Assembly: GCA_964429275.1 (NCBI GenBank)
Contig: CAYSBJ010000002.1
Location: 1-64,000 of the forward strand
Length of the DNA: 64,000 nucleotides
Direction of reading: 5' to 3'
Source of the DNA: an uncultured Pseudomonadota bacterium
GTDB taxonomy: Bacteria; Babelota; Babeliae; Babelales; JAUPTZ01
Position numbers: made by a program. Shown here in pieces: positions 27,001 to 39,000 of the stretch. The stretch's first letter is position 1, and each line of letters starts with the position of its first letter.

Positions 27001-30000
27001 TGCCACAAATATCAGTGCCAGCTTTGGTGCACTCTTTTGATTTTCATCCGTCGACCGCTCGTGATGCTTTGGAGGCACTGACGGATGCTGGCATCCTGAA
27101 GGAAATTACTGGCAAAAAGCGGGATCGGGTGTATGTGTACCAGCAGTATTTGGCTCTTCTTGAGGAAGAGTAGCGTCCGCTTCTGCATCCCCCAGCCACA
27201 CACCGGTGCGTATGAGGTGGTCAAGCTGGCGAAAGGTGCGGGTAGCGCAAAAAGTCTGTGACAACAGTTCCACGCGCCGGTAGAGAAAGAGTTTGCATGG
27301 GATGCCGCGCGCGGCGCAGACATCGCCGACTTCCTGCAGCACTGGTCCCATGTCATCAAAAAATACGATCATTGATGGTTTTATCTTTGCATAATCAAGA
27401 AATGCCCCAAGGACCGTGCCTTTATCTGTTTGATTGGTGCACAAAAGACCTTTGTGCAGCGTCGGGTAGTTGCCGCGAGACTGGGGCATGCAGCGGACGT
27501 TAGGATCTGGTTGTGAGTGTGACTTAGGTATGTGTGTATACTCCCTCACGGTTTTAAACGTGGTGTCTGGGTATGTGGTGTTAAATGTTACTCCCAGTTC
27601 CTTGAGTACTGAGTAGCGCCATTCTTCCGCGTGGGGGATGATGCCAAGCTTGCCGGTTAGCATGTTGGTAAGGCCCAGGACGGTTATATGTCGTTGTCTG
27701 AGTGAGTTAATAAGTTCTGAAATACCATCTTCAATGAGTACCCGCGGGGCCTGTAGGAATACGTGGCTTGCTAAATCTTCTTGCGCTGCTTTTTTGTATA
27801 AATGGGGAAATTTGATGAGTAATTGAATCCAAAACCACCAACTCAGGTCTGACTTTCTGACGTTTGCAAAAGAATCTGGCGCATAGGTGAGGGTGTCGTC
27901 TACATCAAACAATACCAAACTATTTTGATCAAGCGCGGTAAGCGTTTCGATGCACTGGGGGTCGGTGTATGAATAAATGCGGTGCACTGGATGGAGAGAG
28001 GTGAGGTCGATTATGTAGGAGATTAAACCGCATAAAAGAAGGAAGCCCGCAGCGCATTGCCAAAATCGCCACAGCATTTGTTTGCGTGTTTTCATGTTAT
28101 TTTTTTCTTAGTAGAGATCTCTTTGTGCTGATACATGGCTTACTCTTCAAATATACTTGTTTGAGAGCAATCTTACCGGTCGTTGCCCAGAAAAACAAGG
28201 AACTCCTCCTTGATTCCCGAAAAAAGCAGCCTCGCAGGATATGTTTCCCTGTGTCATTCGCCCAGTAGGAGCGGTTCTTGGAAGAATCGGGGGGCTTGAA
28301 CAAGTAGAAATGCTGGTTACATAGTGCTTTTTGCCGGATTTGGGGGGTTGCAAAACATGGTTTTTGGTATAGGCTATTCCATGCCGTTTGGCACGGTAGC
28401 TGAGATTTCAGCTGTAGTGTTTAATCAACTATTGAGGAGTAATCATTATGAAAGTGACTCAATCGGGATCCCCCCGTTTTAATGCTAAAGCACCAGGCAA
28501 AAAGCTGGTGTCAATTAACTGCAACAACCGTCAATGGGATGTTGAAGTACAAAATCTTAAAGAACTTGCTGAAGGCCCAGTCCTTTTTGTCCTTAATCAG
28601 GATGGAAATGGTTGGGCCTATGATTTTATTAACGCTTTTAAGTCTGCCTATACTGAATGGTCTGCTGATGGAAGTTTTCCTGAACATGACCATATTTTAA
28701 TGAATGAATCCCGTGGCGATCTTCAGAGTAAGCTGTATGAGCATCCGTTTATTCAAGGATTTTCTCGAAAGCCTGCGCGTATTATAACTGTTGGTGACGC
28801 TGCGAGCGCAGAAGTTGCTCGCTACCGTGTTGCATGGGGCTTAACCAGCTGTATTCAACAGCTCTTTTGTGTGATTGGTGACCCTGAAGCACTTGATTTG
28901 GTTGACATGAATGGTCAACTTTTGGCGAATACGAATGGTGTATATGCGGTTGAGGCACGTAGCCTTACTAAGCAAATTCGTTCACTGAGGAGTTTGAGCC
29001 GGGTTGTTAAAACAGTAGCTATTATTTCTGGGTATAGTGGTCGCTTTGATTCAATTGCTCTGCAAAAAGACAAAGCCGCTCAGAAGATTATTCAAGAGTG
29101 TGAGAAGTTTGGCATGCGAGCGTTGCGTGTTTATATGGTGGGGGATGAAAATATTGCTGGTTATCTTGAAGGTTTTGGCTCTGTGTGCGAAGCCGTCATC
29201 ACATTGCGTGATGACGCTGTCTATGGGCATCTGGACGAAATCGCAAGTTTCTGCACTAAAAATAGAATTATTCACTTTGCGTCCGAACTTTCCTCTGTAG
29301 CTCGCGGAGCAGCTATGGGATTTGGGAATGCGCCAGCGGCGTATGTGCCTTCACTTATGAATTTGATGTGGCAGCATAAGGAAACGCATCTGCCATTGAA
29401 TTCCTTTGAACTTGAAATTGTTGAAGAACCAATTGAGGTTCGACACAATATGAGCAGTATTCGTGCGCAAGTACGGGATCTGACTGAGGAAAAAGAAGAT
29501 TTGCTTGAAATGACGTCAATTCACGCAGTGTATTAAAAAGAATGTGAGGGGTGTGCCGTGAAGAGGGCGCGCCCCTCGATTGTTTGGTAACGAGAAAAAT
29601 ATATGAAACAATCGTCTCTCTTTCAGGATAAGTATCTTTACTTGGTGTGTAGTTTATTAGTGTTGTTGATTGCTGGATACTTGGCTATTCATGGTCGCTG
29701 GATCTTGCGCGAACCCTACGTCATAGTTATAACGAAAGATTCCCCATTTTTTAATGGAGTCTGTGAAGGGGTCAAGTCGATGCAAGCCCAGCAACGTGGG
29801 TGTAAGGTTACATTTAAATATGTTCCTGGTTGCGCAGACAGCGCTACTATTCAGCAAATTATTGAAGAAGTTATTAATGAACATCCTGACCTCATTATGC
29901 CGGTGGGAGTAACGCTATCTCAATTGTGTGTCAATCTAGTGAGTAAACGCCAATTGAACATACCGATAGTTTTCGCTGGTCCGGGAGACCCACTTAATCA

Positions 30001-36000: not shown

Positions 36001-39000
36001 CGAATTCTATGCTTGGATCTAATGCACGGTGTTTAGCCATTAATCAAACGGTTGCTACTCAGTACGGTATAAGATTTGATGGTCCTCTTTATAAAATCCT
36101 TAAAAATGGCGTCATTTTTGGTACTGCGTCATTTGATGAAACAGGTATTGTAGAAGGTTTTGATATTCCAGAACGCGAGGAGATTGATCTATGACTACTC
36201 CCAAAAGAATTGCAGTGCTTACTCGGGCCCGGTTTTCGTATCATTTGCAGCTAGGATGGGGATTTTTGGAGGCCATGAATCAGTGTCTTGATGATGTTGA
36301 CTCATGGATGCCTATCATGTTTATGTGCCGTGAAGTGCTCCCTGAAGTTATGCATGAACAAATGAAAGAAGCTACCTCTGGCAAATACGACCTTATTGTT
36401 TCTTTTGGGGCTTTATGGACCGATGTTGCTGCGAAATTTATTCGTGAAAATAGCATTAAAACGCCACTCGTTTTTGGAGGGGTTACTGATCCCGTTGCAC
36501 TGGGTGTATTGCCTGAATTAAGGTCTACGAATCAGATCACCGGCATATATAGAACGCCAGCCTCATGGACGGAGGTTGCAGAAATGTTGCATTATATTAA
36601 GCCTTCGATGAAGCGCATCCTTATCCCCTTTCGTGAGCATGCTGAAAATGGCCTCATTAAAAAAGCTCTTGAAGAGGTGCGAGATCGCTATGCTGAAGCT
36701 GGAGTGGAATGCATTTTGTTTCCGGTGACAAAGTTTCGTATTTGCCCGGAAGAGATTTATACGCTTCTTTTATCGGTAGATACATTATGGTCGTTTGAGG
36801 GGGGCTTCCTGGATATCTTTAGCAGCTCGATGATTGAGATATGTAATATGCGCCATATTACTTTCTTTTCGAATAATGCGGCTCATATTGCGCAAGGCGC
36901 TGCACTGGTGTATGCCGCTCCTGACTTTAGCGTCATGGGAGAGGCGCTGCTGAAACAGATGTACCAAATTCTTGAGGAGGGCAAAAAGCCTGAAGAGGTC
37001 GATATCATCAAATTACCGGATGACCGGCGCATGATGGTGAACCTTGAAGCTGCAAAACTACAGGGACTTGACCTTGATAAAGTGCTCTTAATGGCCATGC
37101 GTAATGGGTTAATGATTATTAAATAGCCTCTGTTGGTTGTGGGAATGCAATGACTGAAAAGAAGAGTCTTTTTATAGGTTTTTTAATAACGTCTGTTGTG
37201 GGGCTGTTTGTCGGGCGTTATGTAGTGCCATACAAGGATCTAGTAATGACGCGTAAGCTCCGAAAGAATGTAGCAATTCTTACAAAGCCTTTTGAATACC
37301 ATCAGCAAGTTCTGCATGGTGCGTTAACTACGTTAGGCCTTGAGCAACGAGTGGATCTATTCCCTGATGTTTACACCGCGACTGGTGATCAAATCAGTGA
37401 GAAAAATATTGTTGAAGAGGCGCTGGCCGCAAAACCAGACCTTGTTCTTGCCATTGGTGCTGGCCTTGCTCAAGTGGCCAAAAACACCATTCAAAAGAGG
37501 CGTTTGCCAATTCCTCTGGTGTTTGCGGGAGCAACAGACCCGGTGGCCCTTGGATTGGTTGATTCAGTGGAAGTGCCGGGGTGCAATGTAACCGGCTCAA
37601 ACATGCTTCCGTATGATCGGGTGCTGATGGTGAAGTACCTTTTACTTCTGCTGCCGCACATAAGACGCATAGGGTTGCCATACACTGCTCAAACATCAAG
37701 TGTGGACATAGAGATCCATGCGCAGGAAATTAAGGAATACTGCGCCGCGCGTGGCGTTGAGGTTATATTGTTGCCTATTGATGTTCCAGAGGCCAATGGA
37801 CTTCAGTTGGTACAAGGGATTATTAATCAAATAGATGCGTTAATTTACCTTCCGGTATGTTACGTGTGCAAAATTGCCAGTGGTCTGGTGAAGTTGTGTG
37901 CTGAGCATCATGTTGTTTTGTGTGCGGGTGACGAGTCGGCTTTTGCCAACGATGAAGATGGTGCACCGTTTTCGTATGGGCCGCGCGCAGGGTTAACTGG
38001 AAAGTATGCCGCAGAGCAAGTCAAAAAAATTCTTGTTGAGGGACAGTCTGCTGCCAGGATGCCGGTTCAATATGTTGAACGTGGCTGTCGATTTGCGATC
38101 AATCTGAATGCGCTAAAAAAGCAAGATATTGCTATAAATCCAGATTTATTGCTACTTATTTCCCATGGTGAAGTTCTTAAGGACGGCGTTGAATGGTAAA
38201 AGGCACTGTTGCATCCTATCCTTGAGGGGCCATTTCTTTGTATGAAAAACGGCTTATCAACCGTATTATTCTAGCATCACGTGCGATTGATGCAACCTGC
38301 CGTCGCTAGCCTCATGGCTGGTTGTTATGCCAATTGCAGCCAAAAAGTCATAATCGTGTGAAATGACGAGCAACGCTCCCGGGTATTCTTTGAGCACTTC
38401 AATAATGTGTTGCCGCGTCTCCAGATCAAGATTATTGGTGACTTCATCCAGAATGAGGAGTTTGGGGGCGCGGGCGCCAATCAGTGCTACGCTCGCAACC
38501 GCCTTCGATACTACGGTGTGTCTCGCCTTGGCCCCCAAAGGGGCGACGGCGGATGACCCGCAAAGTGCGTCTTGAAAATTAACATTGACCCGTTATAACG
38601 CGTCTGCATAATAATGTTTTGTTGCTCAAAAGAACCTTTCGGGCGTTTTTTCATGCTTAAATATGAAATGTATCTGCGATAGCCTCGGGCCAGGGTACCC
38701 CAAGGAGCGAGTTCGGCTTTTTGCACAGCAAAAAACGCATGTTTGAGCGGGAGGGGCACCCCTGGTCGGGCGCAGCAGCCTTTATGGGTTCAATGCCACG
38801 GGGGGTCCTTTTGCTATTTTCCCCCTTCTATGCTACCTTTTCCCCCCGTTACCAGGAGTTTTAAAAAGGAGTCTGATCTATGAACGTTGAAAAGATAGTA
38901 GTGCGAGGTGCACGCGAGCATAACCTTCGTTCGGTGAATGTCGAGATTCCTAAAAACAAGCTGGTTATCATTACAGGGCCGTCCGGTTCCGGCAAGAGTT

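Follow-up and report, generated by a model that had tools for sequence, protein, structure and literature searches.

The window analysed here, a 64,000-nt stretch of DNA from an uncultured bacterium of the order Babelales, raises the question of what is done by a tandem array of nine ORFs (28448–38199, forward strand) that belong to one diverged PF04392 (ABC_sub_bind) family and are in part without an export signal. The nine ORFs are:

28448–29536, forward strand: lead gene of cassette 1, class L1, 362 aa; PF04392 13 bits, E 0.059
29603–30631, forward strand: anchored, class A1, 342 aa; PF04392 106.6 bits; hydrophobic segment at residues 11–31
30621–31592, forward strand: signal-less, class B1, 323 aa; PF04392 53.7 bits; 11-nt overlap with the upstream gene
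31589–32557, forward strand: signal-less, class C1, 322 aa; PF04392 49.2 bits; 4-nt overlap with the upstream gene
32989–34071, forward strand: lead gene of cassette 2, class L1, 360 aa; PF04392 15.6 bits, E 0.0095
34138–35151, forward strand: anchored, class A1, 337 aa; PF04392 91.3 bits; hydrophobic segment at residues 10–30
35151–36194, forward strand: signal-less, class B1, 347 aa; PF04392 22.7 bits; 1-nt overlap with the upstream gene
36191–37126, forward strand: signal-less, class C1 (C1 clade), 311 aa; PF04392 51.2 bits; 4-nt overlap with the upstream gene
37150–38199, forward strand: anchored, class D1, 349 aa; PF04392 101.9 bits; dN/dS 0.14

Six of the nine proteins scored above the Pfam gathering cut-off for PF04392 (25.9 bits), at 49–107 bits, while the two leads (13.0 and 15.6 bits) and ORF 35151–36194 (22.7 bits) fell below it. 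All nine were united by a family HMM (E≤1e-72), including ORF 35151–36194 (E 2.1e-80), which was placed within the B1 clade. The Pfam scan of the nine proteins detected no helix-turn-helix and no other domain. Sequence matches in the PDB were found for 29603–30631 (3LKV, E 8.9e-14; 6HNI, E 8.4e-11). The lead at 28448–29536 had only 10 homologues in a database of 5.8 billion proteins and 30621–31592 only four at E≤1e-5; for 31589–32557, relatives among 1.84 billion sequences comprised 570 representatives at E≤0.001, of which 10 reached E≤1e-30. Across the 1.21 Mb genome, a six-frame PF04392 search placed 44 of 48 candidates at E≤0.01 and 38 above the cut-off. Starting from the nine window genes, an iterated HMM search recovered 53 family ORFs among the 4173 ORFs that are 60 aa or longer, a count that includes two fragments of one broken lead gene. 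The family takes up 54,168 of 1,207,998 bases (4.48 %), and the burst of about 50 paralogues described in the earlier note was confirmed.

Such an array could consist of neutral or decaying duplicates, or could have arisen when a repetitive region was misassembled. In favour of this explanation, a lead is broken into two ORFs, a plain copy is truncated to 264 aa and an anchored copy has a shortened C-terminal end; Logan contigs, moreover, end where the window is repetitive. However, the contigs of two Logan runs agree with the window at 99–100 % over long pieces, and the paralogues are only 20–60 % identical, which shows that they are not collapsed repeats. Four other genomes of the genus, and one from a sister genus, also carry full-length orthologues, and dN/dS was low for the leads (0.06 for 28448–29536 against its congener orthologue and 0.06 for 32989–34071), the anchored genes (0.19 and 0.14) and the plain genes (0.07 for 30621–31592 and 0.05 for 31589–32557). 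These comparisons indicate that purifying selection acts on every class (dN/dS 0.05–0.19) and that the family genes are real and maintained. Decay was rejected for most members on these values, leaving a few broken or shortened copies, and duplication without function or misassembly is largely refuted as an explanation for the array.

The earlier note had taken the burst to be specific to, and invented in, a single genus. This proved too narrow, since the burst is common to the whole GTDB family: all five other genomes of that family carry it (42, 41, 24, 17 and 19 matches), and the last of these, 64 % complete, belongs to a sister genus. The remaining 115 Babelales genomes sampled held 0–5 matches each, and 73 of all 121 genomes sampled had none. 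The paralogues descend from a membrane-anchored ABC binding protein of the aromatic-amino-acid type (PF04392), of which other Babelales hold these 0–5 copies. In the common ancestor of the GTDB family, a PF04392 gene would have given rise to three specialized subunit types: a signal-less 'lead' type with an N-terminal extension, a signal-less 'plain' type, and an 'anchored' type with an N-terminal transmembrane segment styled as in the order's canonical binding proteins. The cassette would then have been copied about ten times as a block.

Lead, plain and anchored genes formed separate old clades, each with congener orthologues, and best hits between cassettes followed position, which bears out the positional orthology described previously. 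These best hits indicate that cassettes were duplicated as blocks; the lead at 32989–34071 is 96 % identical to one at 105614–106696 of contig C2. Adjacent cassette genes overlap by 1–11 nt or are tightly spaced. A fixed gene order, as previously claimed, was not observed. The class-D anchored gene is last, second or missing depending on the cassette, and at congener locus L003 a 92 %-identical orthologue of 37150–38199 lies 13 nt after the class-C orthologue of 31589–32557, indicating that 32989–37126 sits between genes four and five of one cassette. Type II/IV-pilus-type secretion genes were seen close to some cassettes, at a few loci only.

By hydropathy, on which both the anchor calls and the absence-of-signal calls are based, an N-terminal hydrophobic segment was present in 23 of the 53 ORFs (canonical solute-binding protein, SBP, counted), absent from 29 and ambiguous in one, in line with the earlier statement that half of the members have no export signal. 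Within the window, the same measure gave four anchored genes and five without a hydrophobic N-terminus, so that the export signal, or membrane or lipid anchor, that puts a functional ABC-importer SBP outside the cytoplasm is found in four of the nine. The first beta-strand of the signal-less genes begins about 5–25 residues after the start codon and, together with the 1–11-nt overlaps with upstream genes, leaves no space for a hidden signal. TatC was not found in the genome (98 % complete), and Tat co-export of folded partners is therefore not possible. The N-terminus of the lead at 28448–29536 is not hydrophobic and carries an extension of about 40 aa.

It is conceivable that the signal-less lead and plain proteins exit by an unrecognized route and that their binding partners are metabolites or proteins in a protist host. 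Babelales are host-dependent bacteria, the 40-residue extension of the lead is conserved, and the pilus-type secretion genes lie near some cassettes. However, that proximity is limited to a few loci, no known secretion signal was seen in the signal-less lead and plain proteins, TatC is absent, and tight operon coupling with inner-membrane-anchored paralogues is unusual for effectors. A host-directed role is thus considered very improbable.

The lead at 28448–29536, the most diverged member, was modelled with AF2 (pLDDT 67.1, pTM 0.67; residues 1–40 under pLDDT 50). Top Foldseek matches were 3LFT, 3LKV and 6HNI (E 4e-11 to 3e-10, target-normalized TM 0.74–0.78), with LacI-family cores from rank 7. 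The model indicates that the lead has a type I periplasmic-binding-protein (PBP) fold. The three structures are those of the solved PF04392 relatives SP1069 (3LFT, Trp), VC_1101 (3LKV, Phe) and CD0873 of C. difficile (6HNI, Tyr), with which the paralogues share the fold and detectable sequence homology; L-Trp, L-Tyr and L-Phe are the family ligands named in PMC10443332 and PMC6816091. Unlike these proteins, the paralogues are without the canonical polar residues, more than half have no export signal by hydropathy, and none stands beside a permease. Polar residues that never vary among canonical relatives were kept in 0–2 % of 47 paralogues (His47 0 %, Thr106 2 %, Asn78 2 %, Glu179 0 %), and the canonical T-D-N motif gives way to E-G. 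Judged by these alignments, the paralogues no longer have the canonical contact pattern for aromatic amino acids. Cleft-aligned loops keep family-wide polar motifs, with His in 23 of 47 in addition to E-G. At the two selectivity positions given in PMC6816091, 29603–30631 has Asp and Ala (mapped from alignments). The window genes do not qualify as TrpX-type aromatic-amino-acid binding proteins, given the loss of contact residues and the scores with the TrpX model (NCBIfam NF041285), which gave 23–74 bits for six of them and no match for three, under its equivalog cut-off of 390 bits.

Pocket-aligned residues, with columns defined by conservation in 21 canonical sequences plus those two selectivity positions and with no structure used, were shared by members of one subunit class in different cassettes; members of one cassette did not match in them. 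The extra conservation of these columns within classes was significant only in A1 (P=0.009) and C1 (P=0.033) of eight classes. Conservation by class suggests a division of labour between the classes, which would then not be interchangeable receptors, and it weakens the reading of one metabolite per cassette.

Only two PF02653 permeases were found in the genome, in agreement with the two permease/ATPase sets counted earlier. One belongs to a canonical operon in the window:

9757–12484, forward strand: SBP (9757–10755), ABC ATPase (10758–11489) and PF02653 permease (11648–12484)

This operon, in which the canonical copy stands as in the solved PF04392 proteins, scored 157.1 bits for PF04392, 96.2 bits for ABC_tran and 81.1 bits for BPD_transp_2; its SBP is anchored and reached 165.5 bits with the TrpX model, under the 390-bit cut-off. 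The other permease is part of a permease–ATPase pair on contig C3 with no adjoining SBP. No permease or ATPase was found within about 5 kb of any cassette, and a permease match in the operon of an SBP was obtained for 9757–10755 only. PF02653 permeases are not expanded (0–2 in each of 121 genomes), and the 116 ORFs flanking the cassettes included no recurring regulator. Of the earlier observation as a whole, the array, the census, the signal-less share, the positional orthology and the two permeases stood, and genus-specificity and fixed order did not.

Two permease sets, one without an adjoining binding protein, against 23 anchored proteins would be consistent with a pool of orphan receptors, in which about 21 anchored paralogues interchangeably feed two PF02653/ABC translocators and widen the solute range, as proposed for Bordetella Bug/TctC, the signal-less members being a side branch (e.g. 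cytoplasmic proteins that act as regulators for these solutes or buffer them). The anchors resemble those of 20 canonical binding proteins of the order (short basic N-tail, hydrophobic stretch, K/R-rich flank). Bug proteins are periplasmic and mostly encoded by scattered single genes, whereas the paralogues here form cassettes of three differentiated subunit classes, more than half of them without a signal by hydropathy. One binding-protein family is swollen in both cases, with 53 ORFs against two permeases here and, according to PMC5812351, 76–79 Bug genes against two tctAB sets in Bordetella, likewise a host-adapted bacterium with few membrane-component sets. PF03401, to which Bug/TctC belong, is however a separate family, with the type II fold class of tripartite tricarboxylate transporters. 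A receptor pool leaves unexplained why signal-less members occur in every cassette at dN/dS 0.05–0.07 and why pocket-aligned residues are common to classes and not to cassettes. No cassette of this genome adjoins a permease, and the sister-genus genome with 19 family matches (64 % complete) gave no PF02653 match. By analogy with Bug/TctC, a receptor pool deserves mention but is rather unlikely.

Evidence on association between members came from the adjacent signal-less proteins 30621–31592 (B1) and 31589–32557 (C1). This one pair of paralogues, each with its own shallow alignment (6 and 12 rows), was predicted to form a heterodimer with ipSAE 0.86, 0.85 and 0.84 (best of three controls, 0.00), a score that does not separate a heterodimer from a general dimerizing tendency of the fold. 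Of 157 solved complexes, 116 attained the same mark, against 2 of 215 mismatched pairs. The runs agreed in at least 99 % of contacts, with partner pLDDT of at least 82, and the predicted contacts run through the C-terminal segments. Two-domain fusions that lack a signal occur in the sister genus, and two metagenome proteins, P0042 and P0087, are of the same kind. In another fusion, P0096, an anchored domain is joined to a second domain that matches C1 best among the classes (63.9 bits versus 55.5 for D1), which at face value would put a C1-like domain outside the cell.

Cassettes that mix anchored and inside members suggest multi-part assemblies not yet described. The multi-subunit module proposed in the earlier note gains from the old clades, block duplication, gene overlaps, purifying selection, the predicted pair and the fusions; the restriction to one GTDB family, the lost canonical polar residues, the unexpanded permeases, the missing TatC and pocket residues that track class instead of cassette also speak for the present version of it. 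It is adopted here as a tentative main reading, with a probability of roughly 0.45: the cassettes may encode multi-subunit modules of PBP-fold paralogues that are not ordinary ABC receptors, each cassette being hetero-oligomeric and supporting scavenging. Signal-less members would pair in the cytoplasm, as predicted for adjacent B and C genes, and anchored members would lie on the outer face of the inner membrane. Proteins so placed cannot touch, and a single complex of all members is therefore not possible without a membrane partner; none is encoded near the cassettes. With a cleft rebuilt so that aromatic amino acids are no longer bound in the canonical way, the module would capture or sense solute on both sides of the membrane, alongside two generic permeases and with no permease of its own per cassette, supporting nutrient scavenging by a reduced parasite.

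A two-compartment form of this module would have signal-less hetero-oligomers as inside sinks or sensors and anchored paralogues outside, with host metabolites pulled in via generic carriers or reported on; this is speculative and unlikely as it stands. It is similarly doubtful that signal-less members are high-affinity 'cytoplasmic solute-binding proteins' in modules with no dedicated ABC translocator. If true, a two-compartment module would be an undescribed nutrient-capture strategy of reduced intracellular parasites. LacI/GalR repressor cores and AmiC use the PBP fold as a cytoplasmic ligand sensor, often as a dimer, beside an exported homologue for the same solute. In contrast to these, the window genes belong to PF04392 and have no DNA-binding domain and no regulator partner nearby.

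The lost contact residues, the heterodimer predicted through C-terminal segments, the tandem fusions and a share of 4.48 % of the genome might instead point to a scaffold, in which the paralogues, their fold no longer binding solute, form a protein assembly at the membrane or in the cytoplasm that has no part in transport. However, the cleft-aligned His and E-G are more easily reconciled with a rebuilt binding site than with the absence of one, and no structural-protein features were seen; such a role is improbable.

Three non-coding elements accompany the lead genes:

28151–28377, forward strand: 227-nt non-coding element, copy 1, about 70 nt 5' of lead gene 1
29545–29578, forward strand: GC-rich hairpin in the 66-nt lead/anchored spacer, 13-pair stem with 9 G-C pairs
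32697–32923, forward strand: 227-nt element, copy 2, preceding lead gene 2

The two copies of the 227-nt element are 99 % identical; copy 1 had no match in Rfam, and its fold z-score was 0.11. A 110-nt part recurs at 105440–105548 of contig C2 (85 % identity), and about 219 nt at 80 % identity also lie 5' of the congener's lead. The hairpin sequence differs in three of four spacers compared. Without a shuffled control, the predicted folds reached −29.8 kcal/mol in the first spacer of the window, −27.4 kcal/mol at both 34072–34137 and 106697–106762 of contig C2, and −30.6 kcal/mol at 436525–436606 of contig C1.

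The interval 28448-38199 of the window holds nine tightly packed ORFs of 311-362 aa on the forward strand, most with a Shine-Dalgarno-like motif at the 5' side. They are diverged PF04392 (ABC_sub_bind) paralogues and form two cassettes. The PF04392 cut-off (25.9 bits) was passed by six of the nine, with scores of 49-107 bits; scores below the cut-off are given in the list.

Family members and canonical operon in the window. Anchored, with an N-terminal hydrophobic segment; plain, without signal.
9757-10755, binding protein of the canonical operon (157 bits)
10758-11489, ABC ATPase of the canonical operon
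11648-12484, PF02653 permease of the canonical operon
28448-29536, + strand, lead (13.0 bits)
29603-30631, + strand, anchored A
30621-31592, + strand, plain B
31589-32557, + strand, plain C
32989-34071, + strand, lead (15.6 bits)
34138-35151, + strand, anchored A
35151-36194, + strand, plain B (22.7 bits)
36191-37126, + strand, plain C
37150-38199, + strand, anchored D

An HMM built from the nine window genes and iterated to convergence over 4173 ORFs of at least 60 aa recovered a family of 53 ORFs, which comprise 54,168 of the 1,207,998 bases of the genome (4.48 %). This agrees with an earlier note on this DNA, which had put the family at about 50 paralogues and 5 % of genes. At E<=0.01, a six-frame Pfam search of the genome with PF04392 matched 44 times, and 38 of these matches lay above the cut-off. 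Four cassettes are of type I, in which the lead is followed by anchored A, plain B, plain C and, in some cases, anchored D. Another five are of type II, in which the lead is followed by one or two plain genes and then one or two anchored ones. Beyond these there are three atypical clusters and a few isolated genes. The second and last PF02653 permease of the genome lies on contig C3, with an ATPase beside it and no adjoining binding protein. Damaged members on contig C2 point to birth and death of genes within the family: a lead is split into ORFs of 203 and 141 aa (293807-294877), a plain copy is cut to 264 aa (290725-291519) and a shortened anchored copy (106763-107689) is missing the C-terminal tail beyond a conserved Asn.

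Long pieces of the window were matched at 99-100 % by contigs from two DNA runs, which shows that the genes do not stem from an assembly artefact. The segment 32735-34311, which has a near-identical paralogous copy elsewhere, was spanned by no single contig. Contigs of a related strain (run X8) covered 28328-31066 and 37389-38494 and not the interval between, a gap to which no meaning is attached. No RNA run among those listed contained this stretch.

Among 121 sampled genomes of the order, 48 had a PF04392 match independent of PF02653. Outside one GTDB family, the genomes carried 0-5 PF04392 matches each, all of canonical type (120-212 bits). All five other genomes of that GTDB family showed the burst: two congeners (98 % and 66 % complete) had 42 and 41 matches, two others had 24 and 17, and the only sister-genus genome (64 % complete) had 19. 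The burst had been described as genus-specific; given the sister-genus matches, it belongs to the GTDB family level. PF02653 matched 0-2 times per genome across the 121 and twice in complete genomes of this genus, and the permeases did not expand alongside the binding-protein family. The family is rare within large protein libraries, with 10 homologues for the lead, four for plain B (E<=1e-5) and, among 1.84 billion proteins, 570 representatives for plain C at E<=0.001 and 10 at E<=1e-30. The best 148 library matches included 139 single-domain proteins, of which 89 had a hydrophobic N-terminus and 50 lacked one. Look-alikes beyond PF04392 in a protein atlas were other binding-protein families alone, with scores (0.75-0.77) too low for use.

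A maximum-likelihood tree, read for its topology alone and with the root taken as given, combined the family members of this genome with ten canonical sequences and with relatives drawn from three further genomes. All leads, whatever their cassette type, fell into one clade; a single superclade united the anchored classes A1, D1 and A2; the plain classes B1, C1 and P2 formed separate clades, and each class included congener orthologues. Best hits linked same-position genes of different cassettes, which bears out the proposed orthology of positions. The simplest reading of these sequence relationships is that an old triad of lead, plain and anchored genes was duplicated as a block and then elaborated. 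The gene order, which the earlier note had called fixed, varies: one congener cassette runs lead-A-D-B-C, and in another congener (L003:1906-3940) the orthologues of 31589-32557 (94 % identical) and 37150-38199 (92 %) lie 13 nt apart. In the window, class C and class D are separated at 32558-37149 by four genes (32989-37126) and a copy of a 227-nt element. The four genes therefore sit inside what is one cassette in the congener, and would represent either an insertion here or a deletion there. The dS of neighbouring orthologue pairs ranged widely, from 0.12 to 0.90, and this unevenness hints at recombination inside the cassette.

Nei-Gojobori dN/dS against a close congener was 0.06 for the lead, 0.07 and 0.05 for plain members, and 0.19 (over 113 codons only) and 0.14 for anchored members; two paralogous leads compared with each other also gave 0.06. 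Most members are thus not in decay, although a few have been broken or shortened. Reduced host-dependent bacteria normally lose genes. In contrast, about 4.5 % of this 1.2 Mb genome is devoted to one remodelled binding-protein family under purifying selection.

The lead is the most diverged member, and was nonetheless modelled as a type I binding-protein fold (AF2, 11 sequences; pLDDT 67.1, pTM 0.67; residues 1-40 unconfident). Its top structural matches were three solved PF04392 proteins (target-normalised TM 0.74-0.78), for which two papers name L-Trp, L-Phe and L-Tyr as ligands (PMC10443332; PMC6816091); one of the three, CD0873, was obtained with its ligand already in place (PMC6816091). 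Cleft columns were deduced not from a structure but from an alignment in which 47 paralogues were set against this genome's own canonical sequence and 20 from other Babelales, 21 in all. Polar residues with complete or near-complete conservation in the canonical set were almost entirely lost from the paralogues, His47 being retained in 0 %, Thr106 in 2 % and Asn78 in 2 %; Glu179 was retained in 0 % and Asp230 in 21 %. The canonical T-D-N motif has become E-G in most paralogue classes, and 23 of the 47 have a new His three residues downstream of the canonical one. None of the nine window genes reached the cut-off of the NCBI TrpX model. Cleft-aligned residues were common to one class across cassettes and unlike between classes of one cassette; conservation within a class exceeded background for only A1 (p=0.009) and C1 (p=0.033) of eight classes. 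An identical pocket inside and outside within one cassette was not seen, as these residues track class.

By Kyte-Doolittle hydropathy, an N-terminal hydrophobic segment was present in 23 of the 53 family ORFs, ambiguous in one and absent from 29, consistent with the earlier estimate that half of the paralogues have no export signal. A missed signal peptide is not possible in the signal-less genes, because they overlap the gene upstream by 1-11 nt and have only a few residues between the start codon and the first beta-strand. In the anchored paralogues, K/R residues were more numerous on the C-terminal flank of the anchor (mean 3.78) than on its N-terminal flank (mean 2.06), the former being richer in 14 of 18, compared with 1.65 and 2.02 in 205 other proteins of this genome with a single N-terminal hydrophobic segment. 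This excess raised the possibility of an inverted topology with a cytoplasmic domain, which was dropped since 20 canonical binding proteins from other Babelales also have the K/R-rich flank (means 3.1 and 2.3). Because the anchors resemble those of the order's canonical binding proteins, the anchored paralogues are placed outside and the signal-less ones in the cytoplasm, as predicted locations. Passage of signal-less partners through Tat by hitch-hiking was rejected, no TatC match having been found in the genome.

Co-folding of the neighbouring plain genes B (30621-31592) and C (31589-32557), with custom alignments of 6 and 12 rows, gave ipSAE values of 0.86, 0.85 and 0.84; the best of three controls gave 0.00. 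In a benchmark, 116 of 157 solved complexes and two of 215 mismatched pairs reached the same mark. The runs had at least 99 % of contacts in common and a partner pLDDT of at least 82, with an interface formed in each chain by a helix around residues 131-149 together with the last 30-40 residues. The model supports binding of B and C to each other, and would fit either a heterodimer or a general tendency of the paralogues to dimerize. Fusions are a separate hint of binding between members. Two signal-less sister-genus ORFs of 678 aa (L005:1750-3786) and 644 aa (L006:432-2366) each have two family domains, the first normal and the second very diverged (E ~1e-11 against the family HMM, no Pfam match). 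Among metagenome library proteins, P0042 is a P2-P2 fusion, P0087 joins a C1-like to a diverged domain and P0096 is an anchored two-domain protein. As for fusions to other domains, the long proteins in the best 148 library matches were tandem family domains and one M20 fusion, and no signalling domain was seen. The M20 fusion, P0064, has an anchored canonical-type PF04392 domain (154 bits) and an M20 peptidase with a dimerization domain, and would pair an amino-acid-type binding protein with a peptidase.

Taken as modules of differentiated subunits with a binding-protein fold, the cassettes fit the evidence better than as a simple pool of extra ABC receptors. This is because the signal-less classes are strongly constrained in every cassette, conserved cleft residues go with class and not cassette, and pairing is predicted for two adjacent signal-less members. 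Outer and inner members might be coupled by one shared solute that crosses via the two generic permeases, or might work in parallel. For the anchored half of the family an orphan-receptor model is a serious rival, with a precedent in the Bug family of Bordetella (PMC5812351). A scaffold role for the family is improbable, and an effector role for the signal-less members less probable still. Signal-less members of an ABC binding-protein family that lack a DNA-binding domain and are partnered with anchored paralogues fall outside the textbook picture. Cytoplasmic binding complexes, if real, would be a new role for a very well-studied fold and a pointer to the metabolites that this uncultured group draws from its hosts. 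Being small and soluble, the proteins lend themselves to direct tests. No prior description was found in listings of literature outside subscription journals on Dependentiae binding proteins, paralogues or comparative genomics, or on PF04392.

Two kinds of non-coding feature accompany the leads.

Spacer hairpins and element copies
28151-28377, 227-nt non-coding element
32697-32923, 227-nt non-coding element
29537-29602, hairpin spacer
34072-34137, hairpin spacer
contig C2 106697-106762, hairpin spacer
contig C1 436525-436606, hairpin spacer

In all four type I cassettes the 66-82-nt spacer 3' of the lead contains a GC-rich hairpin (-27.4 to -30.6 kcal/mol, no shuffled control), distinct in sequence in three of the four; type II spacers (4-33 nt) are too short for one. 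Classical ABC operons have similarly placed stem-loops 3' of their binding-protein genes. By analogy, the hairpin could raise expression of the lead relative to the rest of the cassette, and could be an attenuator or an mRNA-stabilizing element. The two element copies, 99 % identical, lie ~70 nt upstream of each window lead, despite only 47 % identity between the lead proteins. Weaker copies precede the lead at contig C2 105614 (110 nt, 85 %) and that of a congener (80 %). A structured RNA was rejected (no Rfam match in 27800-38900 at E<=1; fold z-score 0.11); the element could serve as a promoter or leader common to the leads, or as the recombination site for the four-gene block.

To find a recurrent neighbour as a functional clue, 116 ORFs flanking 15 loci were scanned with Pfam; they proved to be housekeeping and miscellaneous genes, none common to the cassettes. 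The window cassettes are flanked by a Fic/DOC-family gene with a Fic_N domain (26022-27173, +), whose end is overlapped by a DUF2608 gene (27106-28095, -), and by a UvrA-like ABC ATPase of 850 aa (38880-41432, +). Near several cassettes were two copies of an AAA-ATPase_like and PDDEXK_9 nuclease gene (L033:3467-5032, L036:12005-13561), three AAA_14/DUF4143 genes (L031:1139-1912, L035:145-1038, L042:8207-9580) and a phage-type integrase (L035:2968-3936). In the congener G018, a PF02653 permease (C4:28053-28832) lies ~5 kb from a seven-gene family cassette (C4:33833-40723); here, the permease without an adjoining binding protein and the matching cassette are on different contigs.
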